The translations under genes were made by a program, and so were the position numbers. DNA of 64,000 nt, taken from positions 2,331 through 66,330 of the forward strand of contig JAAYJW010000331.1 in the NCBI GenBank assembly GCA_012522765.1. The letters run 5' to 3'. Positions 3,066 through 64,000 of this stretch are shown here, in pieces. The first letter of the stretch is position 1. The number at the start of each line of letters is the position of its first letter. Origin of the DNA: a candidate division WS1 bacterium. GTDB taxonomy: Bacteria; Armatimonadota; Zipacnadia; Zipacnadales; UBA5352. The notes under the pieces were generated by a model. It was not told the origin of the DNA. It ran no database searches and saw nothing but the letters and a program-made list of their open reading frames with translations.

Positions 3066-4160
3066 ATGCGCGGCATGCTGACCGTTCTGTTCTTCACGAT
3101 CCTCGCGGCGTCCACAGCGGCGGCCCAGGACGAGACGATCCTGCGCCATGACAACTTCCTCGTCTTCGACGGCCAGGCCGGCCAGAGCATCGCGATCGAG
3201 GTCGAATCCTTTCAGAAGTCAGCGCAGTACGGTGAGGACGTGATCGTCGAGGTGATCGACCCGGACAGCGAGCGCACTCTGCGCGAGTTGGTGCCGCTGA
3301 ACGAGACGAGAGTCATCGACTACTCCGTTGCGGCCGACGGCGCTCATGCCGTGCGCATCTCCACGGGCTGGAATACCGCGACCGCCAGCATCTCCGGCGC
3401 GGCGTGGGCGCTGGTGGCATGGCGCGACGTGCCGATCAACATCTGCGGTGGCATGGCCCCGCTGCACTTCAAGGTGCTCGAAGGCGCAACGAAGTTCGTC
3501 CTGCATCTATCTGCGAGTGTCACGAACGAGGGCGCCACAGTGAGGCTGTACGCGCCGGATGGCTCAGTTGTGCTGGACAGGACCGATGATTTCGACAACG
3601 AGGAGCGCATCGATATCGAGGTGCCGGAGGGAGCGGATGATGCCATCTGGCGGGTGACGGTGACGAATCCCGAGCACGAGCGGCTCTATCTTGACGACGT
3701 GCTGCTCTATCTCTCAGGCCCGGTGCCGCCGTATCTTGCGGAAGACCCCGAACACCTCGCCCCGTTCGTGTCCTCTGCACGCTATCAGCCGGATATCATT
3801 GACGTGACGGTTCCAGTGACCGATCGGATCGCGCTGCAGGCGAACACCAGCGAGACGGTCACATGGCAGATGCAGGAGCTTCCGCAGGATTGCACCTACG
3901 CGCTGCGCATCGGGGCCAACGATGTGGATTACCCTCGCGAACTGATTGTCTCGATCAACGGCGGCGAGGAGATCGCGGTGCCTATCACCGGCAATTCGAC
4001 CAGCGACACCTTCACATTGCTGATCCCCCGAGAGGCGCTGCACACAGGTGAAAACAGCATCAAGTTCACGCAGTACGCCGGTGGCGGGTCCAACGTCGTG
4101 GTTGTCGAGAGCGCGCAGATACTGATCGGCCAACGCATCAAGGAGTACAGGGGATACTGA
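3066..4160 (+). CDS. Secreted hypothetical protein
   Basis: Signal peptide MRGMLTVLFFTILAASTAAAQD. RBS GAGGGAG lies 7 nt upstream of the ATG at 3066. The track start at 3051 is a GTG inside the RBS. No recognisable catalytic motif. Confidence 0.55.
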   Translation: MRGMLTVLFFTILAASTAAAQDETILRHDNFLVFDGQAGQSIAIEVESFQKSAQYGEDVIVEVIDPDSERTLRELVPLNETRVIDYSVAADGAHAVRISTGWNTATASISGAAWALVAWRDVPINICGGMAPLHFKVLEGATKFVLHLSASVTNEGATVRLYAPDGSVVLDRTDDFDNEERIDIEVPEGADDAIWRVTVTNPEHERLYLDDVLLYLSGPVPPYLAEDPEHLAPFVSSARYQPDIIDVTVPVTDRIALQANTSETVTWQMQELPQDCTYALRIGANDVDYPRELIVSINGGEEIAVPITGNSTSDTFTLLIPREALHTGENSIKFTQYAGGGSNVVVVESAQILIGQRIKEYRGY

Positions 4161-4171
4161 GCGGCTTCGGT

Positions 4172-5341
4172 TCAGGAGCGGGCCGGGTTGAGTTCGCGAG
4201 CCTGCTCGTAGACCTCTTCGAGCCTCTCGCCGATGGCGCTGATCGAGCACGTCTCTGCGAAGCGCCGCCCGCCGATGAGAAGCTGCCGACGAAGTGACGG
4301 TTGATCGAGCACTCGCTCCACCGCCTCAGCTATCCCCTCTGCGCCGCGCTCAGGCGGCACGAGCAGCCCGTTCTCGCCATCCCGGATCATGTCTGCCGCT
4401 CCCGGAGTGGCATGGGCGACCAGCGGCGTACCGACATACATCGCTTCGGTGTAGGCCAGCGGCATCGTCTCGCTGCGGCTGGCGGTCATGAAGATATCCA
4501 TCGCAGCATCGTAATGCTTCACTTCGCTGTGCCGCACACTGCCCGTGAAGATCGCCCTGTCGCCGAGCGCTTTGGCGGCACGCGCCTTCAGCGCCTCTCT
4601 TCTCCCGCCGTCCCCCACGATCAGCAGCCTTATGTTCGGTCGCCGCCGGGCCAGCAGCGCAGCCGCATCCACCAGACACTCCACGTTCTTTACCGGCGAG
4701 AGGCGCCCGAGGAAGCCGAGCACGATCTCATCGCTCGCGATCCCGAGCCGGCTCCGGGTCCCGGAGCGATCCGCCCTGTCAAGCTCGGCAAGGTCCACCG
4801 GGTTATGCACGATCTCAATCGGCGAAGTGACGCCCTTGTCGATCAGCCTCTGTCGCATCCACTGAACCGGCGTGGTCACCACATCACAGAGGTTGAAGAA
4901 GCGCCCCACGTGGCGGCTGACAACGCGCTCCACCCACTTCTCCGGCAGGAAGGCTCTATCGGCGTACAGCTCATACTGGGTGTGTGCGGTGGAGACGAAG
5001 GCGTTACCACGCCGGCGTCCCCAGCGATGACCCCATGCGCCCACCCACGCGGGGTGCTGGCTGTGGACGACGTCAACCTTGAGCGTCAGCAGCTTCAACT
5101 GCTCCGACGCGTTCTTGAGCACCGGCAGGGCGAGCATGTAGTCCACCTCGCCCGGCAGCAGCACGGAGCGATAGCGGTGGACATACGGGTCGTCCGCAAA
5201 CGGATCCTCTGCGGCGGGGGCGGGGGCGAAGACATGCACCTCATGCCCGCGCTCGAGCAGGCCGCGGCGGTAGAAGTGCGTGACGTTCGCGACCCCGTTG
5301 AGGCTGGGTGGATAGGTGTTGGTGAAAAGCGCGACGCGCAT
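4172..5341 (-). CDS. Glycosyltransferase family 4 (GT-B fold)
   Basis: N-terminal MRVALFTNTYPPSLNGVA and C-terminal EXFG-like region (ETMPLAYTEAMYVGTPLVA). 389 aa. Confidence 0.85.
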   Translation of the reverse strand: MRVALFTNTYPPSLNGVANVTHFYRRGLLERGHEVHVFAPAPAAEDPFADDPYVHRYRSVLLPGEVDYMLALPVLKNASEQLKLLTLKVDVVHSQHPAWVGAWGHRWGRRRGNAFVSTAHTQYELYADRAFLPEKWVERVVSRHVGRFFNLCDVVTTPVQWMRQRLIDKGVTSPIEIVHNPVDLAELDRADRSGTRSRLGIASDEIVLGFLGRLSPVKNVECLVDAAALLARRRPNIRLLIVGDGGRREALKARAAKALGDRAIFTGSVRHSEVKHYDAAMDIFMTASRSETMPLAYTEAMYVGTPLVAHATPGAADMIRDGENGLLVPPERGAEGIAEAVERVLDQPSLRRQLLIGGRRFAETCSISAIGERLEEVYEQARELNPARS

Positions 5342-9202: not shown

Positions 9203-9913
9203 ATGCGACGCATGGTGACCTGTTTGTTGCTCCTCGTGCTCGTCGCCGGGATTGCGAGCGCACAGACGATCTGGACCCCTCGGGTTGAGGAGAATGGACG
9301 CTTGCTCGTGCCGGTCCGCGGGATCTTTGAGGCATTCGGGGCGACTGTGGACTGGAGCGGCTACGATCAGAGTGCCACGGTCAACTACCAGGGCCGCGCG
9401 ATTACCATGTGGGTGAACAACCCGCAGGCTTACATTGACGGGGCCGCCTACTACCTCGACGTGCCGCCGCGCAATGTCGGCGGCCGTGTGCACATCCCTC
9501 TGCGCTTTGTGGGCGAGGCGATGGGCAAGACGGTGAACTATCAGGGCGACCGGGTGGTCATATCCTCCGGCGGCAACGCGGAACTGACGATCATGCTGCA
9601 GGGCAGCACGCTGCCGCCACCGCCGCAGATGGGTGGCGAGATACTGCCGCAGAGCAATGACCGCCATCTCAACAACGCAGACCTCGCCGGGATGAGCAAC
9701 TGGCGGCTGACGCTTGCGCGGAATGAGATCTACGCCCGTCACGGCCGACCCTTTGATAACGCTAGCGTCCGCGCCTACTTCCAGTCAACGGGCTGGTACA
9801 GGCCGAACGCCAACTTCCGCGAATCGTGGCTCTCGCAGACAGAGTCGCGCAACGCGGTCTTCATCCGCGAGTATCAGGAGGGCGTCTTCGGGCGACCCGC
9901 TACCTCTCCTTGA
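9203..9913 (+). CDS. Secreted YARHG-domain protein with copper-amine-oxidase-N-like domain
   Basis: Signal peptide MRRMVTCLLLLVLVAGIASA. Literal YARHG motif (LTLARNEIYARHGRPF...YF...GWY) at the C-terminus. GGAGGTG RBS. Confidence 0.8.
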   Translation: MRRMVTCLLLLVLVAGIASAQTIWTPRVEENGRLLVPVRGIFEAFGATVDWSGYDQSATVNYQGRAITMWVNNPQAYIDGAAYYLDVPPRNVGGRVHIPLRFVGEAMGKTVNYQGDRVVISSGGNAELTIMLQGSTLPPPPQMGGEILPQSNDRHLNNADLAGMSNWRLTLARNEIYARHGRPFDNASVRAYFQSTGWYRPNANFRESWLSQTESRNAVFIREYQEGVFGRPATSP

Positions 9914-9947
9914 TGGGGCGTAAAGGTAGATGGAGCGAGGAGCGACG

Positions 9948-10541
9948 ATGAAGTGGGCTATCGGTATTGCGGCGGCATTCGCGATGATAGTGCTGGTGGG
10001 CATCGCGGTGTTCGTGGGTATGCGCATCGGCAGGTCCGGCGACGATGCAGCAGGCGGCGACGTTACTGCTACGCGGACTGAAGATACGTCTGCGGAGAGC
10101 ACACCGGCGGGCGGTCAGGGCAAACTGACCGCGGGTGCCGCTACCTCTGAGACGGGCGCGGCCACCCGCGAGCAACCCTTCACGAGCGCGGTGGAGATGC
10201 CTGACACCACACCGCCTCCACCGCCACCCGTTGCGCCTCCACCGCCGGTGCTGCCGGTGAGGAACGAACTGCTGCCGCAGAGCGACGACCGCCCGCTCAC
10301 CGGCAGCGATGTGACGGGACTGGGCAACTGGGACCTGACGCTCGCCCGGAACGAGATCTACGCGCGGCACGGGCGTCCGTTCAGCAATGCGCAGATTCGC
10401 GCCTACTTCCAGGGCACCGGTTGGTACACCGCGGATAGCGGCTACAGCGACAGGCGGCTGTCGCAGCTTGAGTCGCGCAATGCAGTCTTCATCCGCGAGT
10501 ATCAGGAGGCCGTCTTCGGCCGAGCAGCAACTGCTCCGTAA
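9948..10541 (+). CDS. Membrane-anchored YARHG-domain protein (Pro-rich linker)
   Basis: N-terminal TM helix (MKWAIGIAAAFAMIVLVGIAVFVGM), a PPPPPPVAPPPPVLP linker, and a C-terminal YARHG domain about 75% identical to the neighbour. Confidence 0.8.
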   Translation: MKWAIGIAAAFAMIVLVGIAVFVGMRIGRSGDDAAGGDVTATRTEDTSAESTPAGGQGKLTAGAATSETGAATREQPFTSAVEMPDTTPPPPPPVAPPPPVLPVRNELLPQSDDRPLTGSDVTGLGNWDLTLARNEIYARHGRPFSNAQIRAYFQGTGWYTADSGYSDRRLSQLESRNAVFIREYQEAVFGRAATAP

Positions 10542-11634: not shown

Positions 11635-11976
11635 TCATCTTCCCGAGGACATCGCCTCAATGATCTCAGACTGCGACAGGCTCGAATGCTTTTTCGAGTC
11701 GGCACGTTGCTTCAAACTGAACTTTATATCCAAGCCCAATGCCGTAGCCAATCGTACGAGCGTGCGCACCGTCGTGTTATGCTGCGTGTTCAGGAACCTG
11801 CTCAGCGCACTCGGCTGCATGCCCGCGAGTTCCGCCAGCTCCGCCTGCGTGTATCCCTTCTCCTCCATCGCAGCGTAGATCTTTTCCGCCAGATCGTACA
11901 ACAGACCATCGAGAATGTAATCAGGGTCGCCCTCAAACCTACGCTTGCGCTCCTGATAAGCTTCTGACTGCTTCAT
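11635..11976 (-). CDS. HTH XRE-family antitoxin (HigA-like)
   Basis: Helix-turn-helix YTQAELAELAGMQPSALSRFLN. Lies immediately downstream of the toxin gene (24-nt gap). Confidence 0.8.
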   Translation of the reverse strand: MKQSEAYQERKRRFEGDPDYILDGLLYDLAEKIYAAMEEKGYTQAELAELAGMQPSALSRFLNTQHNTTVRTLVRLATALGLDIKFSLKQRADSKKHSSLSQSEIIEAMSSGR

Positions 11977-12000: not shown

Positions 12001-12450
12001 TTATTCACCCGGATAAGTCGCCAGGTACTGCTTCTTCAAGGCAACCGCTCGGTCTATCTGAGCCTGAGGCGTCTTGTCTGTCTTCTTCGTGAAGCCATGC
12101 GTCAACACTATGAGCCCCCTGCCGTCAGGCAGTTTGCCAGCTCGAAACCAGAACACGCGTGACTGGTACTCTTTCAGTTCGAATAGATTGTTTTGCCCTT
12201 TGATCGGCCGTCCTTTCTCAAGGTTTCGAGGAGGGCCTTGATTGCACATGCGTTCAGCCGCTGCATGAATCTTCTTCTGCCCGGCTTCAGGCAGACTCTC
12301 GACAAACTGATCGAACAGAGTGAGATCGCCTTCTCGTGTGCACAGCGCGACGATCACATACAGCTTCCCTGCCGTAACAAGCTCACGTTTCAGCATGCAG
12401 TCCGCATCTCCAGCAGCCCCGGGAAGGGCATTCATTGTGTATGTTAACAT
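12001..12450 (-). CDS. Gp49-like / HigB-RelE family type II toxin
   Basis: Hallmark C-terminal region NLFELKEYQSRVFWFRAGK...IVLTHGFTKKTDKTPQAQIDRA. Start may be an internal Met, for example MLKRELV. Confidence 0.75.
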   Translation of the reverse strand: MLTYTMNALPGAAGDADCMLKRELVTAGKLYVIVALCTREGDLTLFDQFVESLPEAGQKKIHAAAERMCNQGPPRNLEKGRPIKGQNNLFELKEYQSRVFWFRAGKLPDGRGLIVLTHGFTKKTDKTPQAQIDRAVALKKQYLATYPGE

Positions 12451-12504: not shown

Positions 12505-13650
12505 TTACCCCGCCTCAAGCTCCTCGAGCAGGCCGTCAGGCACTGTCGCGGCGTAGGGGCGGGGGATGCCATCGCGGTCGGAGTTGAAGATCACGTAGCG
12601 ACAGTCAGGGCTGAAGTAGGGGTGCGGGTGGGTGTACTGCGGGCGGCCGATGGATGCCAGCGAATCGCACAGCACCCGCGAGCGGCCCGTGCGCACTGAG
12701 CCGACGATGATCGGGTGGCCTTTTTCGCGCGCGTCGGAGACGAAGAAGCGACCGTCCTTCGAGGCGTTCGGGTGGCAGTAGGTCCATCCGCCGGCGATGG
12801 CGCGCGCGGACGCATCACCCGGGCGCACCGCCAGCAGATTGCCCCTCTTCAGCGCCTCGCGGGGGTCCCTGTGCCAGACGGTGAAGAGGATCTCGCCGCT
12901 CTCCCCCAGCCACGCCTCATGACCCTGGCAACGGGGCGTATGCGGCAGCCCGATCGGCAGTCGCGTCGGGTTGCCCTGCATGTCGATCACGTAGAGCGTG
13001 GAGCCCTGCTCGCCCACATTGCGCGTCATCTGCCCGCGCTCATCCACGATGCATCCGCGATTGTGCTGCACGAGGCAAAGCTCGCCGCCGCCGGGATCGA
13101 TCTGCACATGCGCGTTGGGGATCTCCGGATCGGAGTGGATGACCTCCCACGTCCCGTCCTCGAGGTCCGCCTTCACGATGCCGAAAAGCTGCGGCTCGAG
13201 GCGGGCGGCGTAGATGTATGTGCGACCATCGGGGCTGTACGTGCCGATCGATCGCAGTCGTGGCGCGCCCTCAAGCACGATCTTCTCACGCTGAAGCGTC
13301 TCTATCTCCACCCGCACGATCGTGACCGGGAGTTCGGTGCGGGCGGAGGCGATGCAGAAGTAGCGCTGATCGGGACTCACCGCCGCCCCGCGCAGTTGCT
13401 CAACGTGCTCGGCGACCGGCTCGGACCAGCTTCGCTGCAGATCGGCCCGCCATAGCTCGAACGGTCCCTGCGGTGTATCGCCGAGCGTGTACATCACGTA
13501 GCGCGAGCCTGCATCCATGTAACGAACTTCGCAGTAGATGTTCGACCCGATCCGGCTGCCACTGGTAAGCTGCGTGACCTGCGAGCCTGAGCGCGGATCG
13601 ACCTCGCGCGGAACGAACTCGATTGCCGGACGGAAGATGTTGCTGCGCAT
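12505..13650 (-). CDS. Oligogalacturonide lyase family (PL22-like) beta-propeller protein
   Basis: C-terminal THPHPYFSPDCRYVIFNSDRDG closely matches Ogl THPHPSFTPDDKHILFTSDVDG. N-terminal QLTSG...Y pattern resembles Ogl RLTPP. Confidence 0.65.
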   Translation of the reverse strand: MRSNIFRPAIEFVPREVDPRSGSQVTQLTSGSRIGSNIYCEVRYMDAGSRYVMYTLGDTPQGPFELWRADLQRSWSEPVAEHVEQLRGAAVSPDQRYFCIASARTELPVTIVRVEIETLQREKIVLEGAPRLRSIGTYSPDGRTYIYAARLEPQLFGIVKADLEDGTWEVIHSDPEIPNAHVQIDPGGGELCLVQHNRGCIVDERGQMTRNVGEQGSTLYVIDMQGNPTRLPIGLPHTPRCQGHEAWLGESGEILFTVWHRDPREALKRGNLLAVRPGDASARAIAGGWTYCHPNASKDGRFFVSDAREKGHPIIVGSVRTGRSRVLCDSLASIGRPQYTHPHPYFSPDCRYVIFNSDRDGIPRPYAATVPDGLLEELEAG

Positions 13651-13716
13651 AGTGTGCCTCCGGGAGAAGAGCGTAGGCCATCGGTGGCAGGTTCGGGAGA
13701 GGGCGGCTGCGGACCT

Positions 13717-14615
13717 TCACGTCTTACTCTGAGGCAACGGCCGCGTGGCGAGCCAGACCGCGATGATGATCGCGACCGCTCCGGCGACGAAATGCCATGT
13801 CAGCCCCTCGCCAAGCAGCGCCCAGCCGAGAAGCATCGCCAGCGGAGGCGCAACATACTGTGTCGGCCCGAGGATGTTCGCATCTACCAGCTCCAGCGCG
13901 CGGTACCAGACCAGCATCGCGATGGTGGTCGGGAATATGCCCAGCCAGGCGACGGCAAGCCACTCACGCCAGCCGAGCATGACGTCGGGCCGCCGCGCCA
14001 GCGCCACAATGATCAGCATGAGCGCCCCGGCGATCAGCGTGACCGTTGCCGCCTCGGGACCGCCGAGGAGGCGCACGTAGCGCTTGCCCCAGACGGTGTA
14101 TGCCGCCCAGCAGATTGCCCCGCCGAGCGCGGCCAGCGAGCCGAGCACGTTGTCAATCACCGGCAGCGCCTGCGGCGCCGGTGCGCCCGTCACGATGATC
14201 GCGCAGCCGCCGAGTCCGATCAGCAGCCCGATGAAGCGCAGCAGCGGGACGCGCTCGCCGATGAGCAGCGCGAAGACGCCGATGAAGATGGCGTTCGCGT
14301 TGAGTATCAGCGCGCCATTCATCGAGGTGGTGAGGCTGGCGGAGATGAAGACGAAGATGCCCATCGCGAAGATGCCGATCGCGCCGAGGATGGTCAGCGG
14401 CACGATCTCCTCGGCGGCGCGCATCAGCCGCTGCCAGCGGCCGGTGATGGCGAGAAAGATGACCGCAACCGCCGCACCGACGGCGAAGCGGAGCGCAGCG
14501 GTGAGGATCGGGTCCACACCGCGCCCGGCGGTGGTATACCGCGCCGCAACGAAGACGCTCGACCACAGCGCGCTCGCGATCAACCCCAGCAGCAGACCCT
14601 TCGTGCGATCCGTCA
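13717..14615 (-). CDS. DMT-superfamily (EamA) transporter
   Basis: Ten predicted TM helices with a duplicated EamA pattern. Start MTDRTKGLL with GGGAG RBS. Confidence 0.8.
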
Positions 14616-22427: not shown

Positions 22428-22458
22428 CGAACACCCGGCCTCAAGGACCGGGTGTTCG
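22428..22458 (-). terminator. Hairpin terminator downstream of csp
   Basis: cgaacacccggcctcaaggaccgggtgttcg has an 11-bp perfect stem and starts 23 nt after the csp stop. No U-tract follows it, which leaves the terminator call uncertain. Confidence 0.5.
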
Positions 22459-22480: not shown

Positions 22481-22717
22481 CTACCACCGGCTGGCGGAGT
22501 CGCCACCGGGGGCGGCGTCGATCACAACGACGTTCGTGGCACGGGGGCCCTTCGCGTCCTGCTCGATGTCGAACTCGACTTTCGAACCCTCGGTCAGGCT
22601 CTTGTAGCCCTCACCAGCGATTGCGGAGTAATGCACGAATGCATCCTCGCCGTTCTCGGTCTCGATGAAGCCGAAGCCCTTGCCGTCGTCGAACCATTTG
22701 ACTGTTCCAGTCGCCAT
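22481..22717 (-). CDS. csp: Cold-shock protein (CspA family)
   Basis: [33 protein letters not shown] with RNP1/RNP2 motifs. 78 aa with a short C-terminal extension. Confidence 0.92.
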
Positions 22718-26190: not shown

Positions 26191-27798
26191 CTACTGTAGC
26201 GCCCCCGCATGTCGGCCCGCTGCCGGGTCGCCGGCCGTGTGGATCGTCCCATCTTCCTCGATCGCGAGCATCACCGGCATGGCGATGAAGCCGTCGGTCA
26301 CCGACACGTCATGCCCGCGCCCCGCAAGCTCCTGCCGCACGTCCTCCCCCACACCTGCGTTCACCTGCAGGCTGCCGGGAGCCTTGAGTGCGCGAGAGCG
26401 ATCAGGGTCGGAGTCGAACGAGTTCTCCAGGTGATCGGTGGAGAAGCGCGGGACCGTCAGCGCCTCCGCGGGAGCCATCCCGAACTCAAGATGGTTGAGC
26501 AGCACGTTGAGCGTCGTCTGGTCCTGCAGATCGCCACCCGCCACGCTGATCGCCGCCACGAGCCGCCCCTCCTGTGTCACCAGCGTCGGGGTGAGTGTCA
26601 CGCGAGGGCGCTTGCCGGGCTGGATGCGGTTCGGGTGCAGGGGGTTGGTGTTCATGCAGCGCAGGCGATTGCCCTGCGTGACGCCCGTGCGCGGGTCAGG
26701 CTGATTGCCGCACAGGTTGCAGCTTGGCGTCGCGGCGACGACGTTCCCCCACCGATCCGCGACGACGCAGGTGGTGGTGTCGGAGATCGGCGTCGTGACT
26801 TCATTCGCCGCTGCTGGCCCGCCGCCGATGAGCTGCAGCATCGCATACGGGTCGCCCGGACGCCGCTCCTGAGACGCCCGCGCCATGTCAACAAGCTGGC
26901 GGCGCATCTGCGTGTACTCGTCGCTGAGCAGCCGGGGCAGCGGCACGCCCACGAACTCCGGATCCGCGTAATACTCATCACGGTCGGCGTAGGCGAGCTT
27001 CATCGCCTCTGTCACGACATGCAGATGGTCGGGCGAGAGGTGTCCCATCGCCTGCAGATCGCGCTCCTCCAGCAGCCGCAGCGACTGGCAGAGCACCGGC
27101 CCCTGCGTCCATGGCCCGCACTTGTGCACCGCGAAGCCGCGGAAGTCCACCGACACGGGCGCCTCAAGCGCGGGCACCTGCGCGGCGAGGTCGCGTGCGG
27201 TCAGCGGTGAATCAACATCGGCGTACCACGCCAGCAGTTCCTTCGCGATGTCACCGCGGTAGAAATGATCGCGGGCGGCATGAAGCCCGGCCTCGCGCGG
27301 GCCGGAACTCCGCCGCTCGGCCTCCACCAGCCTGCGCAGCGTCTCGGCGAGCCGCGGGTGCCAGTCGGCATCGCCCGCATCGAGCAGCCGCAGCGTCGGC
27401 GCCACTGCCCGGTCAAAGCCGATTGTGCCGAAGCTGCCGAGCGCCGTCAGGCAAAGGTGCAGAGCACCCGGAACGGGCATAGCCCGGTAGTCGCCCTCGT
27501 CGAGGATCCCGTGCTCGTAGTACCACGCGATTGAGGCGGGATCGAGCGGCGCGCGGCCGATGCCGCTGAGCACACGCACCTGCTGCGACCGCGCCTCGTA
27601 GAGCATCAGCGGAATCTCGCCGCCGATGGCGAACAGGCCGTAGTCTGTGACCGCAAGCGCCAGGATCGTGGCGACCGCGGCGTCTATCGCGTTGCCGCCC
27701 TCCGCCAGCACTTCCAGGCCGGCGGCGACAGAGCCAGTGCCTCCTGCGGCCACGGCCCCGCCGGAGCCTGAGGCGCTCCAGCCAATCTGTTCGCGCAT
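26191..27798 (-). CDS. ggt: Gamma-glutamyltransferase family protein (no signal peptide)
   Basis: GGT fold with Thr nucleophile context TTTCVVADRWGNVVAATPS. 535 aa. Confidence 0.85.
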   Translation of the reverse strand: MREQIGWSASGSGGAVAAGGTGSVAAGLEVLAEGGNAIDAAVATILALAVTDYGLFAIGGEIPLMLYEARSQQVRVLSGIGRAPLDPASIAWYYEHGILDEGDYRAMPVPGALHLCLTALGSFGTIGFDRAVAPTLRLLDAGDADWHPRLAETLRRLVEAERRSSGPREAGLHAARDHFYRGDIAKELLAWYADVDSPLTARDLAAQVPALEAPVSVDFRGFAVHKCGPWTQGPVLCQSLRLLEERDLQAMGHLSPDHLHVVTEAMKLAYADRDEYYADPEFVGVPLPRLLSDEYTQMRRQLVDMARASQERRPGDPYAMLQLIGGGPAAANEVTTPISDTTTCVVADRWGNVVAATPSCNLCGNQPDPRTGVTQGNRLRCMNTNPLHPNRIQPGKRPRVTLTPTLVTQEGRLVAAISVAGGDLQDQTTLNVLLNHLEFGMAPAEALTVPRFSTDHLENSFDSDPDRSRALKAPGSLQVNAGVGEDVRQELAGRGHDVSVTDGFIAMPVMLAIEEDGTIHTAGDPAAGRHAGALQ

Positions 27799-28099
27799 CT
27801 GCTGCTTCCTCCGATCATCAATGCGTACGCACCGCTGTCGTTGCCTCGCCCCCCTCCGTTCCGGAGGGGCCTGCGAACGTTTCTCCTCCCGCGCTCATCC
27901 TGCCTGTCGCTAACACTTGAGTCCTCCCCCTCATCCCGAAGGGAGAGGGGGCCGGGGGGTGAGGCAGCCGTTGCCGCAGGAGAGGGCGGTCCTCCCGCCC
28001 GCGGGCGGGACCTCTTCGTGGTCGTTTCTGTGCAGCGGGCGCGACTGGACCGCACGGACAGGAGTGTCCGTGCCACGGAACGGCAACGTACTGCGACCC

Positions 28100-28150
28100 G
28101 CGTCGCTTCGCTCCGCCCCCTGCGAGGGCGCAGGGGTCACAACGACAACA
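28100..28150. repeat. REP-like palindromic element (copy 1)
   Basis: cgcgtcgcttcgctccgccccctgcgagggcgcaggggtcacaacgacaac, about 90% identical to the 38911-38960 copy. Core hairpin CCCCTGCG-AGG-GCGCAGGGG. The flanking 27840-28090 carries further GC hairpins. Confidence 0.6.
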
Positions 28151-28224
28151 CATTTGCGGCGCATGGACAGGGCGCATGTCGCGCGAAGGATCGAGCAGCG
28201 GGCGCATTCTGGGTTGCCGCCGCG

Positions 28225-30843: not shown

Positions 30844-32306
30844 GCCATCTCGCCATCGGCCTGAGTGATGCGAAGGTAGTAGTAGTCGCCCGGGCGCGCC
30901 GGCTCAGCGTCGCTGAGGGTGACGCTGGCGCGGCTGTCAGCCGATGACACGGTCGCGATCTCGCGGTTGTTCTTCACGAGTTCGATGGCGCTCAGCGCTG
31001 CGGTGCCGATGATCTCGGCCTGCAACTCGGCGGGGCCGCTGATCTCCTCAGCGGCGATCTCGCCGCCCATCGGCGTGTCGCCGAGACTGAAGCGGACGAT
31101 GATCCGTGCGCCGGTGGTGGCGTAGCAGCGACGGGCACGTAGCGCGTCGAAGATGCCGTCGCGGGTGAGGCTGTCCGCCCAGACGCCGGTGATCCCGGGC
31201 GGGGCGAGGAAGTCGGTCTCTGCAATCACATGCCAGCCGTGTACCAGCGGACGCGAGGGGCGGCCGTCGTGCGACTCCGAGCCACCGGTGAAGCCGAAGC
31301 GCCAGCCGCGCGCGAGGCCGTCCTGCAGATGGTGGCCGCGAGCCTCGCCCGTCTTGAAGTAGCCACCCGAGGGCAGATACTTGATCGGGTAGGGCTCGCC
31401 GGGCTTCTCCGAGCTGCCCCAGATGGAGAACACCTCGCAGCAGCGCTCAAGCTCCGCGTCGCTGTAGTCCCAGTTCATCCACGTGTTGCCACCGCCGCGG
31501 GCGGTGTGATGCGGGAATGAGAGCACATCCGCAGTCGGCATCGCCTCGCGCAGTGCTCGGAAGAGACCCTCGGCGGTATGTGTCGCATATTCGTTTGAAC
31601 GGAAGATCGGCACCTGCTCGATGCCGCGCGCACGGTTGCGGCGGTAGATGATATGCCGGTGGCCGAAGTTGCGCGACATGTCCTGCGAGTTGCCCCACTC
31701 ATAGCCGGGGAAGGTGACGAAGCGGCCGCTCTCGTTCAGCCGCCGATGCACCTCGATCTGCTGCGCCCATTCGTCATCGGTGAGGTTGAGGTCGTGGTCG
31801 GAGACGGTGGCGAAGTGGATTGCCGCCACGTCGCGCGCCCACGCGAGTGCATCCCCGACAGTAGGCGGGCCCATCAGCAGGTCCGCATCGCTGATGAGAG
31901 CCTGTGCGGGCCGCTCGCGGATGTGCGAGTGGACATCGCCCCAGTAGAGCGACAGCGGCCCTGGTTCGACGCTTACCTCCAGCGGATCGGAGCCCGCGTG
32001 AAAGCCGCCGAGGGTGGCCTCGATGTGATAGACGCCCGCCTCAGGCGCCACGATCTCCAGGTGCCCGAGACCTTCGTCAATCTGCACACTATCGAGATCG
32101 CTGGGGCCATCTGCACCGACGAGGCTGAGAGCCGCGGTGCCTGCGCCGTCGGTGGCGGTGGCGCCGATGCCGTTAAGTGCCTGCACGGTGACCCGAACGC
32201 GGTCACCGTACGTGGCACTACTGTCGGTTACGACCCGGAGGCCTGTGACCTCCGGGTCGATGAGCCTCTGAACGACCTCAGGGAGCGGCGGGGGCTCCTG
32301 TGCCAT
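30816..32306 (-). CDS. DUF3604 family protein (paralogue 1), putative PHP-like metal-dependent phosphoesterase
   Basis: Motifs YWGDVHSHI, SGRFVTFPGYEWGN, and C-terminal DYYYLRITQADGEMAWASPVFIT. Start MAQEPP (ATG 32304-32306) with GGAGGTG RBS. Overlaps the UPF0182 gene end. Confidence 0.75.
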   Translation of the reverse strand: MAQEPPPLPEVVQRLIDPEVTGLRVVTDSSATYGDRVRVTVQALNGIGATATDGAGTAALSLVGADGPSDLDSVQIDEGLGHLEIVAPEAGVYHIEATLGGFHAGSDPLEVSVEPGPLSLYWGDVHSHIRERPAQALISDADLLMGPPTVGDALAWARDVAAIHFATVSDHDLNLTDDEWAQQIEVHRRLNESGRFVTFPGYEWGNSQDMSRNFGHRHIIYRRNRARGIEQVPIFRSNEYATHTAEGLFRALREAMPTADVLSFPHHTARGGGNTWMNWDYSDAELERCCEVFSIWGSSEKPGEPYPIKYLPSGGYFKTGEARGHHLQDGLARGWRFGFTGGSESHDGRPSRPLVHGWHVIAETDFLAPPGITGVWADSLTRDGIFDALRARRCYATTGARIIVRFSLGDTPMGGEIAAEEISGPAELQAEIIGTAALSAIELVKNNREIATVSSADSRASVTLSDAEPARPGDYYYLRITQADGEMAWASPVFIT

Positions 32307-38828: not shown

Positions 38829-38910
38829 AGGCGACTTCCTCGAACATTCAGGCTCCTGCGGGACGCATCTGCCGTTGAGATGCGTCGGCCGTTGCCGTTT
38901 ACAGAACAAC

Positions 38911-38960
38911 CGCGTCGCTTCGCGCCGCCCCCTGCGAGGGCGCAGGGGCCACACAACGAC
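38911..38960. repeat. REP-like palindromic element (copy 2)
   Basis: cgcgtcgcttcgcgccgccccctgcgagggcgcaggggccacacaacgac, followed by CAACGGC-rich low-complexity sequence up to about 39170. Confidence 0.6.
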
Positions 38961-39171
38961 TCCGGCAACGGCAAACGACAACTGCGACGGCACAGGTCGG
39001 CACGGGGGCCGACCTCTCCAACGGCACACGACGCATGCCAACGGCTACGGCGACGACAACGGCCCACGGGCGAGGGCGCCCGTGGCACATGATGGACGTA
39101 AGTCTGCCGCGAGCCGTCGCCGTCGCTGTCGTTTCTTTCGTTGCTTCCGCTGCCTTCGTTGCTGCCGTTCG

Positions 39172-43175: not shown

Positions 43176-43246
43176 GTGCAGGACCTCCTTGGTAGTGAAC
43201 GAAACCGGTGAGCCGGAACGTGACAGGCGGCAAGTGACGGCACAAC

Positions 43247-43277
43247 GGCGGCGGGGTACAAGCCCCCGCCCTATAAC
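43247..43277. repeat. REP-like hairpin GGCGGGGTACAAGCCCCCGCCC (module B)
   Basis: Near-identical to 50646-50670. Perfect 8-bp GC stem with TACAAG loop. Confidence 0.55.
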
Positions 43278-43282
43278 ATCTC

Positions 43283-44395
43283 CTACGCCCTCTTCATTGC
43301 GCCGAGGACGTTGGCGGCGCTGGCGAGATAGAGCCTCCCGTCGGCCTCCGTCTCGTTTACCCACTCGGGAGCGTCTTCCTGCTCCAGCAGGTCCGCCGCG
43401 TCCTCCAGCAGCATTACGGCCGTGGCGTGGTCGTAGCGATCCAGCACCATCGCCGCCCAGCCTGTCGCCACCGGCCAGTAGCCGCCGTTTTGATAGGTGC
43501 CGCGCGGGTAGTCGGCGAGCATCTGCTGCCAGTAGCGCGGAGCAGGCAGATGACGTACCGCGCCGCGCAGGAAGCAGCGGTCGTAGTGGTCGAAGAGCCA
43601 CTCCCCCACGCGCACGGTCTGCGTCTTGCTCAGCGCCCGGACCACTCCCGCATACGTGCTGCCCCACAGGTCGATCTGATTGCACTCGACGCTGGCGGCG
43701 TGCATCATCCCGTTGCGCTCGTCGCGGAAGTCGCTCATCCGCTGCGAGGCCTTGTCCGCCATCTCGAACCATGTGTGGGCCGCGTCATGGTCCTCGATCC
43801 GCTGGCACATCTTCGCGAGGATCATGCACGCTTCCCAGTAGAGCAGCGAGGAGTAGAGCACCTCGCCGGTCATGCCTACCGTGTCGGTGAAGCCGTAGCT
43901 TGAGTGCGGGTTGGCAGGATCTATCCAGACGAGGTGGTCGTCGGACAGCGGGAGTGTCTCCATGGCGTCCATGATGGCGTTCTTGTGCCGGTCCAGCAGC
44001 TCAAAGTCACGGGTATGATCGGTGTAGGCGTCGATGAGCTTGACCGCGAACTGCGCGTTGTCGGTGGGCGGCTTGTCGCCGTGGATGGTGTAGCGGGCGC
44101 GGCCGTCGGTGTAGACGCAGTTGGCCATCAGGCCATCCTCGCGCTGCCCAGCCATGAGGAAGTCGATCGCGGCGGCCATCTCTTCGGGCGGGATGAGCCG
44201 CCCCGCGCCCTCGACGGCGTAGCAGAAGTCGCGGAAGTAGATGCGCCCCGGGTACTTCCCCGCGCCATCGGGCTGGAAGATCCAGGTGCCGTCATCGGCC
44301 TTGATGCGGGCGGCGTCGAGACACTTCTTCGTCACTGCCTCGACGCGATCAACTACGCTGCTTTCTATCTCGACGGGTCTGAGGAAATGTTTCAT
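43283..44395 (-). CDS. Putative (alpha/alpha)6-barrel glycoside-hydrolase-like protein
   Basis: Helical repeat composition with Trp/Tyr-rich NGGYWPVATGWAAMVL, typical of six-hairpin glycosidases. Family not assignable by eye. Confidence 0.45.
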   Translation of the reverse strand: MKHFLRPVEIESSVVDRVEAVTKKCLDAARIKADDGTWIFQPDGAGKYPGRIYFRDFCYAVEGAGRLIPPEEMAAAIDFLMAGQREDGLMANCVYTDGRARYTIHGDKPPTDNAQFAVKLIDAYTDHTRDFELLDRHKNAIMDAMETLPLSDDHLVWIDPANPHSSYGFTDTVGMTGEVLYSSLLYWEACMILAKMCQRIEDHDAAHTWFEMADKASQRMSDFRDERNGMMHAASVECNQIDLWGSTYAGVVRALSKTQTVRVGEWLFDHYDRCFLRGAVRHLPAPRYWQQMLADYPRGTYQNGGYWPVATGWAAMVLDRYDHATAVMLLEDAADLLEQEDAPEWVNETEADGRLYLASAANVLGAMKRA

Positions 44396-50240: not shown

Positions 50241-50329
50241 GCGCCAGTCGCGAGACGCAAGTTCCACCAGGGTCGCGGCGGTAGCTCTCGCCGCGGCCCG
50301 TGCTGTACCCGGGCTGAATCGCGGACCGC

Positions 50330-50380
50330 CGTTACCGAACGACATCGCCACTTTGCGCCGCCCCCTGCAAGGGCGCCTCC
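50330..50380. repeat. REP-like element (degenerate copy)
   Basis: aacgacatcgccactttgcgccgccccctgcaagggcgcctcc resembles 50672-50720. Confidence 0.5.
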
Positions 50381-50611
50381 TTCACACACATCTCGCGACG
50401 AGAGGCTTTGCTTCGCGCGGCGCCGTGAAGGGGCCGCACGAAGCCTGAGCGTCGTTTGCGAGGGCTGAGGTCGGCCCTCTACGGTCGTCTCAATGGGTGG
50501 TGGACCGAACAACCGAATGGGCCGACCTCGCGCAGCTTGCTTCGCAACCTGCCCTCGCGCGGCGGTTCCACTGGCAAACGACCGCATTCCGAGATGTGCA
50601 TAAAGACCAGA

Positions 50612-50720
50612 CAAGGGCGCAGGGGCCACAATGACAACAATGGCGGGGCGGGGTACAAGCCCCCGCCCTACAACGACATCGTCACTTTGCGCCACCCCCT
50701 GCAGGGGCGCAGGGGCCGCA
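50612..50720. repeat. Composite REP-like cluster (modules A-B-A)
   Basis: caagggcgcaggggccacaatgacaac, then ggcggggtacaagcccccgccc, then tacaacgacatcgtcactttgcgcc, then accccctgcaggggcgcaggggcc. Confidence 0.6.
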
Positions 50721-50722
50721 AG

Positions 50723-50751
50723 TTGACAGTGTTTTCAGGTATCGCATATAA
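50723..50751 (+). promoter_or_regulatory. Near-consensus sigma70-type promoter (TTGACA-N17-TATAAT)
   Basis: ttgaca gtgttttcaggtatcgca tataat lies about 35 nt upstream of the Gfo/Idh/MocA gene start. Confidence 0.5.
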
Positions 50752-50787
50752 TCCGAACAGTCACCTACGGGGGCGTTCGGTATAGTA

Positions 50788-51858
50788 GTGTCCGGAACGC
50801 GTGAGCGGATTGATGCGGGTGAGGTGCTGATTGTGACCGAGAGCCGCGGCTTTGGTGTCATTGGTACGGGCGTGTGGGGAGAGACACACCTCAAGACGTA
50901 CTCCACGCACCCCGGGGCTGAGCTCGTATGCATCTGCGACCTTGATGAGCAGCTTGTCCGGCAACGCGCCGAGCAGTACGGCGCGCGCTGCTGCTGGACC
51001 ACCGATTACCACGAGTTGCTTGAGCGCGATGACGTCCACGCTGTCTCCGTCGTAACCCCTGACTTCCTCCACCGTGAGATAGCCACCGCCGCTCTTGAGG
51101 CCGGGAAGCACGTTCTGCTCGAGAAGCCGATGGCTACCACTGTCGAAGACTGCGAGGCGATGATCGCCGCCGCGGAGGCCAATGGTGTGACGCTGATGGT
51201 GGACTTCCACAACCGCTGGAACCCGGCGATGTGGGGCATCAAGCAGCGGATCGTCTCGGGAGAGATGGGCACGCCGCAGATGCTCACGGTGCGCCTCAAC
51301 GACACGATCTACGTCCCCACTGAGATGCTCAGTTGGGGCGGCAAGTCCACGGTCATCTGGTTCCTTGGCAGCCACGCCGTGGATCTGGTCCGCTGGCTCT
51401 TTGACGACGAGATCGTCCGCGTCTACTCCGTCTCGCGCTCGCGAGTGCTGGCGGAGCGTGGGGTTGACACCCCGGACTTCTTCCACACCATCTGCGAGCT
51501 TGCGGGCGGTGGAGTGGCGCACATCGAGAACTGCTGGATCATGTCCACGGAGATGCCGACGGTTTTCGACTTCAAGATGGAGGTAGTTGGCTCAGAGGGC
51601 ACCGCTTTTGTTGACGCGAGTTCGCACCGAATGCTCCAGACCTACACCCCCGAGGGACCGAGCTACCCGGATGTGGCCGTTGTTACGGACATCCACGGTC
51701 AGCCCAACGGCTTCGGGGTTCAGAGCATCCGCCATTTCGCCGACTGTGTTATTGAGGGGCGCGAGCCGGTAGTCACGCCCGCTGATGGTTTGCAGAACAC
51801 GCGCGTGCTGGTCGCCATCCACGAGTCGGCCCGCACAGGTGAGCCCGTAGAGGTCTGA
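50788..51858 (+). CDS. Gfo/Idh/MocA family oxidoreductase
   Basis: Rossmann GFGVIGTGVWG and LEKP motif. Start may be the downstream GTG (VTESRG, about 50833), given the promoter position. Confidence 0.82.
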   Translation: MSGTRERIDAGEVLIVTESRGFGVIGTGVWGETHLKTYSTHPGAELVCICDLDEQLVRQRAEQYGARCCWTTDYHELLERDDVHAVSVVTPDFLHREIATAALEAGKHVLLEKPMATTVEDCEAMIAAAEANGVTLMVDFHNRWNPAMWGIKQRIVSGEMGTPQMLTVRLNDTIYVPTEMLSWGGKSTVIWFLGSHAVDLVRWLFDDEIVRVYSVSRSRVLAERGVDTPDFFHTICELAGGGVAHIENCWIMSTEMPTVFDFKMEVVGSEGTAFVDASSHRMLQTYTPEGPSYPDVAVVTDIHGQPNGFGVQSIRHFADCVIEGREPVVTPADGLQNTRVLVAIHESARTGEPVEV

Positions 51859-59001: not shown

Positions 59002-59019
59002 CGGGGCAGCGGCCGTCGC

Positions 59020-59170
59020 CGTTCGGAGCGACGGATCTCGTCGTGTAGATGCGTCGGCCGTTCGTCGTTGTGGCCCCGGTGCCTCGCCGGGGCGCGCCGC
59101 TCTACGGGAGGGGCGAAGCCGGTGCCGCCACCTTCTCAGCCGTTGCCGTCACTTGTCGGCGGCGAAGCCG
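59020..59170. repeat. Cluster of GC-rich hairpins, REP-like
   Basis: Hairpins ccgtcgccgttcggagcgacgg, gccccggtgcctcgccggggc, ggcggcgaagccgcc, and motif gtcgttgtggccc shared with 63977-63989. Confidence 0.5.
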
Positions 59171-59328
59171 CCACCTGTGCGGCGCGATAGCGCCGCCCTG
59201 TTGAAAAAGCCGTGTGTCGTTCGCATGAGCGGGCGAGGGCGTACCCCCGCTGCTCTCTCCCGGAAGGATTCCGCCGCCTCTGCCGGAACTGACCTCCCGT
59301 GCGTACGACGCGCCCGGAGGTCTCGCTC

Positions 59329-63921: not shown

Positions 63922-63939
63922 CGAACGTGTCCAGGCGAG

Positions 63940-64000
63940 GGCGTCTGGACTCCGGTCGCTTGCGCGGGGCGTCGATCTGAGTCGTTGTGGCCCTCGCGCC
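63940..64000. repeat. REP-like element (reverse orientation) at window edge
   Basis: gtccaggcgagggcgtctggac hairpin plus gtcgttgtggccctcgcgcc (reverse complement of the GGCGCGAGGGCCACAACGAC module). Confidence 0.45.

Follow-up and report, generated by a model that had tools for sequence, protein, structure and literature searches.

Our analysis concerns a 64,000-nt stretch of contig JAAYJW010000331.1 (hereafter the window), from a candidate division WS1 bacterium placed among the Armatimonadota, and the short GC-rich palindromes scattered between its genes. These repeats are real, non-random and exclusively intergenic. They probably are repetitive extragenic palindromes (REPs), assembled in mosaics that resemble bacterial interspersed mosaic elements (BIMEs), and spread or maintained by a REP-associated tyrosine transposase (RAYT) encoded elsewhere in these uncultured Armatimonadota from anaerobic digesters. 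The evidence comes from the modules, which form at least ten hairpin families with conserved flanks, interleaved as intergenic mosaics, and from a RAYT gene bracketed by inverted hairpins of one of these families. The earlier note on this DNA had seen no RAYT in the window and pointed elsewhere for one; we found one on a contig that bears the same repeats, and others in related metagenome-assembled genomes (MAGs).

Repeated hairpins between genes

We defined repeat islands by their depth in a blastn-short self-comparison of the window and all fetched loci. The multiplicity of k-mers (k = 11, at least four occurrences) was discarded as a repeat finder, having flagged half of all bases in this GC-rich sequence. 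Apart from those of the RAYT homologues, the comparison loci (L numbers) were retrieved with a pattern for one element, A (the degenerate 24-mer CCRCCCCCTGCRRGGGCGCAGGGG), and are mostly stretches of the LSQX01 metagenome. Intergenic DNA amounts to 8.5% of the window (G+C content 65.9%), according to a gene map that combines the calls of the Joint Genome Institute (JGI) with our own open reading frames (ORFs). All ten repeat islands of the window fall inside six intergenic regions (27799-28224, 38829-39171, 43177-43282, 50241-50787, 59002-59328 and 63922 onward), which bears out the earlier claim that the elements sit only between genes.

Element A consists of a left hairpin, GCGnCGC-TTC-GCGCCGC, followed by the hairpin CCCCTGCG-AGGG-CGCAGGGG and the tail CCACAACGAC, with the tail pattern CCACAACGRC. 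The position n is G, T or C among the copies listed, and the left hairpin is perfect only with G. A near-identical element of about 50 nt had been described at two sites, and indeed the 44-nt copies at 28098-28141 and 38910-38953 are 95% identical; those at 50343-50386 and 50677-50720 are 73-77% identical. The A 24-mer CCGCCCCCTGCGAGGGCGCAGGGG is exact at 28113 and 38925, has three mismatches at 50692, and never appeared in 100 dinucleotide-preserving shuffles. Hairpin B also recurs as proposed (GGCGGGGTACAAGCCCCCGCCC, exact at 43250-43271 and 50647-50668, and equally absent from the shuffles). Other pieces had been placed less accurately. Three further sites were given for the A hairpin; 50695-50720 holds a full hairpin (50696-50715), in a variant form with a 7-bp stem, whereas 50351-50380 has only the 5' arm and the loop, and 50612-50632 only the loop and the 3' arm. 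The latter two are halves of one A element, 236 nt apart. The inverted tail, GTCGTTGTG, is present at 59064-59072 and at 63981-63989, not at 63977. The forward tail 9-mer also occurs inside genes at 5940, 22523 and 24402, probably by chance.

Clustering of 265 hairpins in repeated DNA of the window and the fetched loci gave 49 copies of family A, with the variants A2 (CCCCGGCG..) and A3 (CCCTCGCG..), 20 of family E (GTCCAGGCG-AGGG-CGCCTGGAC), 17 of C (AGGTCGGC-RCGGGG-GCCGACCT), 16 of D ([C/G]CACGGGCG-AGGG-CGCCCGTG[G/C]), 13 each of I (GCACGGACA-GGAG-TGTCCGTGC) and B (GGCGGGG-TACAAGC-CCCCGCC), and seven of J (CGACGCATC..GATGCGTCG). Further classes are family F and long, C-rich/G-rich composite palindromes whose inner hairpins vary. 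The window has members of A, B, C, D, E, I and J, together with composite palindromes. The modules are GC-rich hairpins of 20-27 nt, with perfect stems of 7-9 bp and loops of 3-7 nt; their energies in single-stranded DNA (ssDNA) are predicted at -10 to -20 kcal/mol, and all stems are predicted to be stable. One repeated 'hairpin' with conserved flanks, GATCGCGATGATCGCGATC (L006 8445, L012 1981 and 3590, L017 1194 and 1990, L020 6450 and 7596, L028 2309, L033 4965), is a false positive for REP searches: it appears to belong to several paralogous genes, where it would encode a prepilin-type N-terminal segment (..LIELLVVIAIIAILAA..).

REPs are defined by a palindrome and a 5' GTAG-type tag, which degenerates to GTRG or GTGG in some taxa (PMC3733652). 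Read on the strand where the loops of A, D and E are CCCT, the conserved motif just before the stem is GtCGTTGTGG in A and A3, GtCGTTGtAG in B, TTtGTag in F, CATGTG in D, CCGTG in I, GcCGTtGGAG in C and CCcGGA-G in E, overall G[T/G][A/G]G on one strand, in most cases as part of GYCGTT..GTGG or GTAG. Five families thus have a tag of the defined type (GTGG in A, A2 and A3; GTAG in B and F), and four come close to it: in D and I a GTG overlaps the first stem base, and C and E have GGAG, beyond the published variants (GTRG, GYRG or GTGG). Modules are joined by AACGRC/GYCGTT hexamers, whose density between genes is 7-8 times that in genic sequence.

Family alignment and the counts of neighbouring pairs agree with the claim that the elements occur in both orientations and in clusters. 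Among 65 pairs within 150 nt, 31 are in tandem (head-to-tail, HT), 20 have their tags outside (head-to-head, HH) and 14 inside (tail-to-tail, TT), and the largest cluster has up to seven modules. Head-to-head doublets of D/D and A3/A2 are present on the window's own contig. The latter runs out of the window, its A2 copy lying about 60 nt beyond the A3 at 63981; the former belongs to a mosaic 5.6-5.9 kb upstream of the window, which also includes I, B and an E hairpin that is perfect at 22/22 positions. Same-direction genes border each of the six module-bearing regions of the window, convergent genes border the upstream cluster, and no divergent spacer holds modules; REPs are known to lie between unidirectional or convergent ORFs and to be associated with RAYTs (PMC3733652). 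In the window, the tags of A, B and E are in sense in minus-strand regions and antisense in plus-strand regions. A comparison of GC skew with module orientation was uninformative, because skew merely follows gene orientation.

The elements were suspected of forming a dispersed REP-like family, and searches support this: the A core is matched exactly 38 times across 33 LSQX01 metagenome stretches, once more in another JGI metagenome, and, among 185,579 species-representative genomes, in a single one, a candidate division WS1 MAG with two A hairpins. The A and E cores had no match in viral contigs. The readable part of the window's contig, 82 kb with 8 kb upstream and 10 kb downstream, carries about 19 catalogued modules in seven spacers, and 373 kb of A-selected sequence carry 53 A copies and 156 modules. 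The flanks differ and the neighbouring modules change from copy to copy, as expected of the discrete elements that had been proposed. Contig PXBW01000305.1 (L005; 61% G+C), from a MAG labelled 'candidate division WS1 bacterium', has A hairpins at 4215 and 5343, one of them with full A flanks; either the label, WS1 rather than Armatimonadota, is loose, or the A family spans deeper lineages.

The window has near-identical counterparts among contigs of anaerobic-digester assemblies in BioProject PRJNA283612. The comparison of its contig with two twins in the European Nucleotide Archive (99.97-99.99% identical) revealed 2-7 point differences and no module polymorphism. The stored JGI record of the contig (L001; IMG 3300038805, Ga0239563_000057, 158,974 bp, where record position is 56826 plus window position) differs from the window by three substitutions, at 27174, 28321 and 33985, none of them in repeat modules. 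No orthologous regions in which module gain or loss could be followed were found between the window and the fetched LSQX01 loci.

The RAYT gene and its flanking hairpins

The RAYT is a 165-aa ORF at 3764-4261 (minus strand) of contig LSQX01326419 (L030), with an HFH motif and a Tyr-containing Y-I-R-R-N-P-V motif. It was found by tblastn with the sequence of Escherichia coli YafM, used as a lead only (identity about 25%). The protein scores 86.7 bits against the NCBIfam model NF047646, 'REP-associated tyrosine transposase' (cutoff 80). In PDB it has one relative only, E. coli TnpA_REP (4ER8; E = 2.6e-5), and the alignment includes the HUH motif and the Tyr region. The gene is bracketed by inverted family-E hairpins, present on both sides as doublets of E, a spacer of about 120 nt, and E. 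This is the classic arrangement of REPtrons, or of REP doublets forming hairpins (REPINs).

Homologues of this protein are found in PRJNA283612 (99% identity), in three MAGs of Armatimonadota (72%) and in other metagenomes (58-49%). Most genomes seen have one copy; GCA_964484945.1 has two divergent paralogues, 75% and 58% identical to the L030 protein, at different loci. The gene order AP_endonuc_2 - RAYT - GFO_IDH_MocA - BNR_2 recurs, whole or in part, in L030, L040-L043 and L051, and this common neighbourhood fits the vertically inherited, domesticated and single-copy RAYTs described previously (PMC5581495). Three MAGs with the same protein (100% identical) differ in the number of tandem E-variant units downstream of the gene, which have a period of about 52 nt: at least six in L041 (603-900), two in L042 and a gap of Ns in L040. 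This suggests either expansion and contraction of the array or its collapse in assembly.

All these genes have inverted hairpins with a common apex beside them. In L030 and L040-L044, whose flanks were read directly, a hairpin with a CCCT loop lies upstream of the RAYT gene and one with an AGGG loop downstream; the apex is GGCG-RGGG-CGCC, and the lower stems are GTCCAGG, GTCCGGG, GTGCGGG and GTGCCGG. The short contigs L045-L050 have apex hairpins in both orientations, with stems including GTGCAGG, GGACAGG, GCGCGGG and GAGGGGG. At least 17 different lower stems, altered by compensatory changes, carry this apex, and in 33 distinct hairpins seven of the nine stem pairs have changed on both sides, a count that describes diversity and is no independent test, since the hairpins were selected for pairing and apex. 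REP and RAYT diverge together, the stem GTCCAGG becoming GTCCGGG at 72% protein identity. Cognate inverted REPs around the RAYT were found for family E and its variants only.

The window's genome likely carries the same RAYT elsewhere, to judge from three findings: the window and the LSQX01 loci have one and the same A consensus, the 99% identical RAYT comes from the BioProject of the window's twin contigs, and the window GlmU and the L030 RAYT each have 72% identity to proteins in the same two accession series (MFO80... and MGM049...). The REP families in common and the perfect E hairpin on the window's contig point the same way. We take these series to be the same two Armatimonadota MAG assemblies; a RAYT protein in them is labelled 'Armatimonadota bacterium', and the window GlmU is 72-76% identical to proteins of NCBI MAGs, so that we regard the host as probably an uncultured Armatimonadota bacterium. 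Within the window, a weak tblastn similarity to the YafM sequence around an HUH motif (13523-13756, minus strand; E = 0.001) was considered as a RAYT remnant and rejected. It was not reproduced with the RAYTs of the lineage, overlaps the start of ORF 12505-13650, called by JGI as a Pectate_lyase22-like gene, and is most likely spurious.

The system has much in common with those already described. The REPs and BIMEs of E. coli and TnpA_REP (YafM; 4ER8) are alike in their short palindromes with a tetranucleotide at the 5' foot, extragenic, in both orientations and in mosaic clusters, and in the small HUH/Y1 transposase gene with inverted REPs on either side. They differ in that the tag is GTAG, and mostly GTGG or GGAG here, and the stems are bulged, whereas ours are perfect 7-9-bp GC helices with tetraloops; the many more co-resident families, the AACGRC hexamer linkers, the identity to YafM of about 25% and the Armatimonadota host also set our case apart. 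The REPIN-RAYT systems of Pseudomonas (Bertels & Rainey 2011; Bertels et al. 2017) share the conserved RAYT neighbourhood and the inverted REP doublets, whose conserved spacer measures about 120 nt, but consist of homogeneous REPIN doublets, and the window modules are mostly singletons or mosaics of different families. The GTAG super-family (Di Nocera et al. 2013) offers close parallels: tagged stem-loops with 6-13-bp stems, short loops and a degenerate GTRG/GTGG tag, HH, TT and HT dimers and larger groups, several families per genome and other associated palindromes (PMC3733652). Tagged REPs of this kind, with degenerate tags, are known from several phyla; GTAG-20 of Opitutus terrae has a GTGG tag, and GTAG-23 of Thermomicrobium roseum is inserted in GC-rich palindromes (PMC3733652). 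A GCG-RGGG-CGC apex across families and hexamer linkers are, in contrast, not among the features we noted in that study (PMC3733652). The IS200/IS605 insertion sequences (IS608, ISDra2) also combine an HUH/Y1 enzyme with sub-terminal ssDNA hairpins and a 5' guide tetranucleotide that sets the cleavage site (PMC3479197), but here the enzyme gene is outside the repeated unit, no locus read has a second copy of it, and the repeats themselves are very small and encode no protein. Finally, the large intergenic mosaics of Neisseria likewise interleave several repeat families, but their repeats are CGTC-tagged, associated with no transposase gene (PMC3733652), and without sequence relationship to the modules here.

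Modules of the window and their surroundings

The modules are listed in the table below. The element split at 50343-50635 has the 9-mer CAAGGGCGC at both junctions (50367-50375 and 50612-50620), and the ends of the intervening composite are partly inverted (..CACACATCTCG / CGAGATGTGCA..). Relatives of this composite are present in L032, where a related one has the opposite orientation, and in L037, L020, L012, L014 and L017. The split could be an insertion into the REP loop or a recombination between modules.

Table. Repeat modules in the window, in order of position (strand as read for the module; ssDNA, single-stranded DNA).
Positions	Strand	Module	Remarks
27848..27872		Poly-C/poly-G hairpin, CCCCTCCG-TTC-CGGAGGGG	Perfect 8-bp stem; opens the mosaic 27799-28224, between two minus-strand genes; similar hairpins, CCCCCTCCG..CGGAGGGGG, in L008, L031 and L007
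27916..27971		Long C-rich/G-rich composite palindrome, CCTCCCCCTCATCCC-GAA-GGGAGAGGGGG then CCGGGGGGTGAGGCAGCCGTT	Island depth 4; ssDNA fold -14.1 kcal/mol; inner hairpins vary in other copies
27985..28012		Palindrome TCCCGCC-CGCG-GGCGGGA	Core common to a 9-copy hairpin family (cluster 9)
28050..28080	-	REP family I, GCACGGACA-GGAG-TGTCCGTGC then CACGGAACGGC	Minus-strand tag CCGTG-G; 13-14 copies in the sequence set; island depth 10
28097..28149	-	REP family A, GCGTCGC-TTC-GCTCCGC + CCCCTGCG-AGGG-CGCAGGGG + TCACAACGAC	ssDNA fold -20.4 kcal/mol, z = -4.3; on the minus strand GTCGTTGTGA precedes the stem
38861..38900	-	REP family J, GACGCATCT-GCCGTTG-AGATGCGTC then GGCCGTTGCCGTT	7 copies, conserved flanks (cluster 10); ssDNA fold computed
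38904..38960	-	REP family A	Core identical to metagenome consensus; island depth 51
38961..38993		Linker of degenerate AACGRC hexamers (TCCGGCAACGGCAAACGACAACTGCGACGGCAC)	Same linkers between modules in other loci
38994..39032	-	REP family C, AGGTCGGC-ACGGGG-GCCGACCT then CTCCAACGGC	Minus-strand tag GGAG; 17-19 copies; ssDNA fold computed
39058..39093	-	REP family D, CCACGGGCG-AGGG-CGCCCGTGG then CACATGA	15-16 copies; ssDNA fold computed; apex GCG-AGGG-CGC, as in A and E
43250..43279	-	REP family B, GGCGGGG-TACAAGC-CCCCGCC then CTATAAC	Cluster 7, 13 copies; consensus tag GTCGTTGTAG; just beyond the stop codon (43283) of minus-strand ORF 43283-44395
50343..50376	-	5' half of A element (left hairpin, 5' arm, loop; without 3' arm)	Sequence alignment
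50377..50611		236-nt composite of other repeated palindromes between the A halves, including GAGGTCGGCCC...GGGCCGACCTC and GGGGCCGCACGA...CGCGCGGC	Island 50519-50563
50612..50635	-	3' half of A element (loop, 3' arm, tail CCACAATGAC)	Sequence alignment
50646..50678	-	REP family B then CTACAACGAC	Minus strand: GTCGTTGTAG then stem; ssDNA fold computed
50677..50722	-	Diverged REP family A, CCCCTGC-AGGGGC-GCAGGGG	Directly upstream of a consensus promoter
59013..59063		J-like module, hairpin CCGTCGC-CGTTCGGA-GCGACGG then AGATGCGTCGGCCGTT	Island depth 7
59064..59093	+	Degenerate A2-type REP, opposite orientation, GTCGTTGTGG then GCCCCGG-TGCCTCG-CCGGGGC	Compared with A2 consensus
59139..59196		Module GCCGTTGCCGTCACTTGTC-GGCGGCGAAGCCGCC-ACCTGTGCGGCGCGATAGCGCCGC	Common to L013, L015 and L021 (cluster 17)
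63929..63950	-	REP family E, imperfect, GTCCAGGCG-AGGG-CGTCTGGAC	ssDNA fold -12 kcal/mol, z = -3.4; family flanking the RAYT gene in L030 and L051
63981..64000	+	A3-type REP start, GTCGTTGTGG then CCCTCGCG-CCCT-CGCGAGGG	Runs past the window end

Immediately after the cluster 50612-50722 comes a perfect sigma-70 consensus promoter (50723-50752, plus strand; TTGACA, 18 nt, TATAAT; 12/12), about 35 nt upstream of the ORF that starts at 50788; a small hairpin, CCGAAC...GTTCGG (50753-50780), lies between the promoter and the start codon.

Some structures of the window are outside any repeated family. Long, perfect, unique intergenic hairpins at 1361-1395, 22428-22458 and 32231-32259 (stems of 15, 11 and 11 bp), of which the second is just downstream of a cold-shock gene (22481-22717, minus strand), could serve individual genes as terminators or processing sites. 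The longest direct repeat (9614-9909 and 10242-10537, 71% identity) is coding and lies outside the REP family, in two adjacent paralogous YARHG-domain genes (9212-9913 and 9930-10541, plus strand). A Gp49/HigB-like toxin (PF05973) and its HTH_3 antitoxin (11635-11976 and 12001-12435, minus strand) have a third-position G+C of 0.58-0.70, against about 0.8 in the neighbouring genes, and were probably acquired horizontally. A scan of the window found no tRNA or tmRNA.

Mechanism, alternatives and implications

REPs and REPINs are seen as non-autonomous elements that depend on single-copy RAYTs for their maintenance (PMC3116915, PMC5581495), and E. coli TnpA_REP binds the REP hairpin, reads the 5' GTAG base-specifically and cleaves ssDNA at CT (PMC3479197). 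Homology with this enzyme and with the IS200/IS605 family suggests the most likely mechanism. An HUH/Y1 enzyme, inherited vertically and encoded by a single-copy gene that lies at another place of the genome between inverted E hairpins, would bind the folded hairpin and its tag on ssDNA, and would then cleave and rejoin the strand, disseminating and maintaining the modules as non-autonomous elements. The apex GCG-RGGG-CGC, common to A, D, E and the RAYT-flanking hairpins, is a candidate recognition feature. Once transcribed, the hairpins may have the secondary effect of blocking 3' exonucleases or attenuating read-through. Both the mobility of the modules and their effects on RNA are what we infer.

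Several observations weigh against this explanation. Only family E was observed beside a RAYT, none of A, B, C, D, I and J could be paired with a cognate enzyme, and no RAYT-like sequence exists in the 82 kb readable around and including the window, in agreement with the earlier report for the window itself. The tags deviate from the canonical GTAG, being GTGG or GGAG in several families. No insertion/absence polymorphism that would speak for mobility was seen, the only comparable strains being the near-identical twins. That the LSQX01 contigs and the window represent one genome is itself inferred. Retrieval of the loci with the A pattern biases the copy numbers, and the 97% pairing and invariant apex of the hairpins are partly circular, given how these were selected.

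The alternatives fare worse against the same data. Chance palindromes in a sequence of 66% G+C, where the window has 60 perfect stems of 7 bp or more, might seem a sufficient explanation, as might the remnant of a segmental duplication, but both are refuted: the 22-24-mers never arose in the 100 shuffles and have dozens of copies elsewhere, and the flanks of A copies are coding regions unrelated to each other and to the window. It is quite improbable that the hairpins are primarily host RNA elements (terminators, attenuators or stabilizers of mRNA 3' ends), selected as such and repeated by convergence or duplication of regulatory modules. The gene context fits this idea, since modules lie between same-direction or convergent genes and thus downstream of a coding region, with B at 43250 beginning shortly after a stop codon; the stems are highly stable, and REPs stabilize mRNA 3' ends in E. 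coli (PMC3733652, PMC3479197). Yet no hairpin is followed by a T tract, the tails being CCACAACGAC and similar, so that no REP module has the GC-rich hairpin and T/U tract of an intrinsic (Rho-independent) terminator, and a terminator scan called none. Moreover, the modules take both orientations relative to the flanking genes, up to seven different hairpins in a spacer exceed the needs of termination, and convergence does not explain identical sequences of 40-50 nt, conserved unpaired flanks or a flanked RAYT. A role at the RNA level is compatible with REPs as a secondary effect and fits poorly as the primary one.

The earlier suggestion that the elements might be related to miniature inverted-repeat transposable elements (MITEs) is not supported for the hairpin modules in its classical sense, that of deletion derivatives of DDE-type insertion sequences with terminal inverted repeats and target-site duplications, and we give it hardly any credence. 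Modules of 20-55 nt are much smaller than the typical 100-600 bp, they are single palindromes with asymmetric flanks and no consistent target-site duplication, no DDE transposase was noticed beside copies in loci screened only for Y1/RAYT relatives, and the only transposase flanked by modules is the Y1/HUH RAYT. In favour of MITEs is the split A element, with its direct repeat of 9 nt at both junctions and the partly inverted ends of the 236 nt inside; this composite might be one, and some longer composites could be MITE-like. It is also very unlikely that the modules serve a host protein as sites for binding DNA or RNA, or that they derive from a gene for a small structured RNA, with the apex as ligand site and the RAYT as an incidental neighbour. 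An apex kept over so many compensated stems is the pattern expected of a protein-recognized stem-loop, but such hairpins, inverted relative to each other, stand on both sides of all RAYT orthologues examined, which makes the RAYT the simplest binding protein. As for RNA genes, individual copies lack promoters and occur in both orientations, and Rfam 15 gave no match at gathering score over the window and none on modules at E <= 1 (27000-64000).

A bolder extension of the REP-RAYT explanation, which we regard as unlikely, is that the RAYT of this lineage reads the GCG-RGGG-CGC apex and not a fixed stem and GTAG tag, so that one or two domesticated RAYTs serve many REP families (A, D, E and their variants) and the swarm accretes into mosaics at AACGRC/GYCGTT hexamer tracts as preferred targets. 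If true, the lower stem and the flanks would be free to diversify, in an organization unlike the one-RAYT-one-REPIN rule described in Proteobacteria.

Overall, REPs, BIME-like mosaics and RAYTs are known; what is unusual here is the number of co-resident families, the common apex over covarying stems and the hexamer linkers. REP and REPIN-RAYT systems have so far been characterized almost entirely in Proteobacteria, from which the REP-rich RAYT groups 2 and 3 were essentially described (PMC5581495). Armatimonadota are absent from the phyla reported for tagged REPs in PMC3733652, and a full-text search of the REPIN-RAYT literature returned no mention of them. The mosaics also have practical consequences. 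They break assemblies, as all seven RAYT contigs of the more distant orthologues (L045-L051) are only 0.8-4.2 kb long, and they are worth masking when intergenic regions of MAGs are scanned for regulatory RNAs or CRISPR-like repeats. The rich system of these uncultured Armatimonadota, where compensatory substitutions in the hairpin stems accompany the divergence of the RAYT, provides a second and phylogenetically remote data set on substrate recognition by RAYTs and on the persistence of REP populations.

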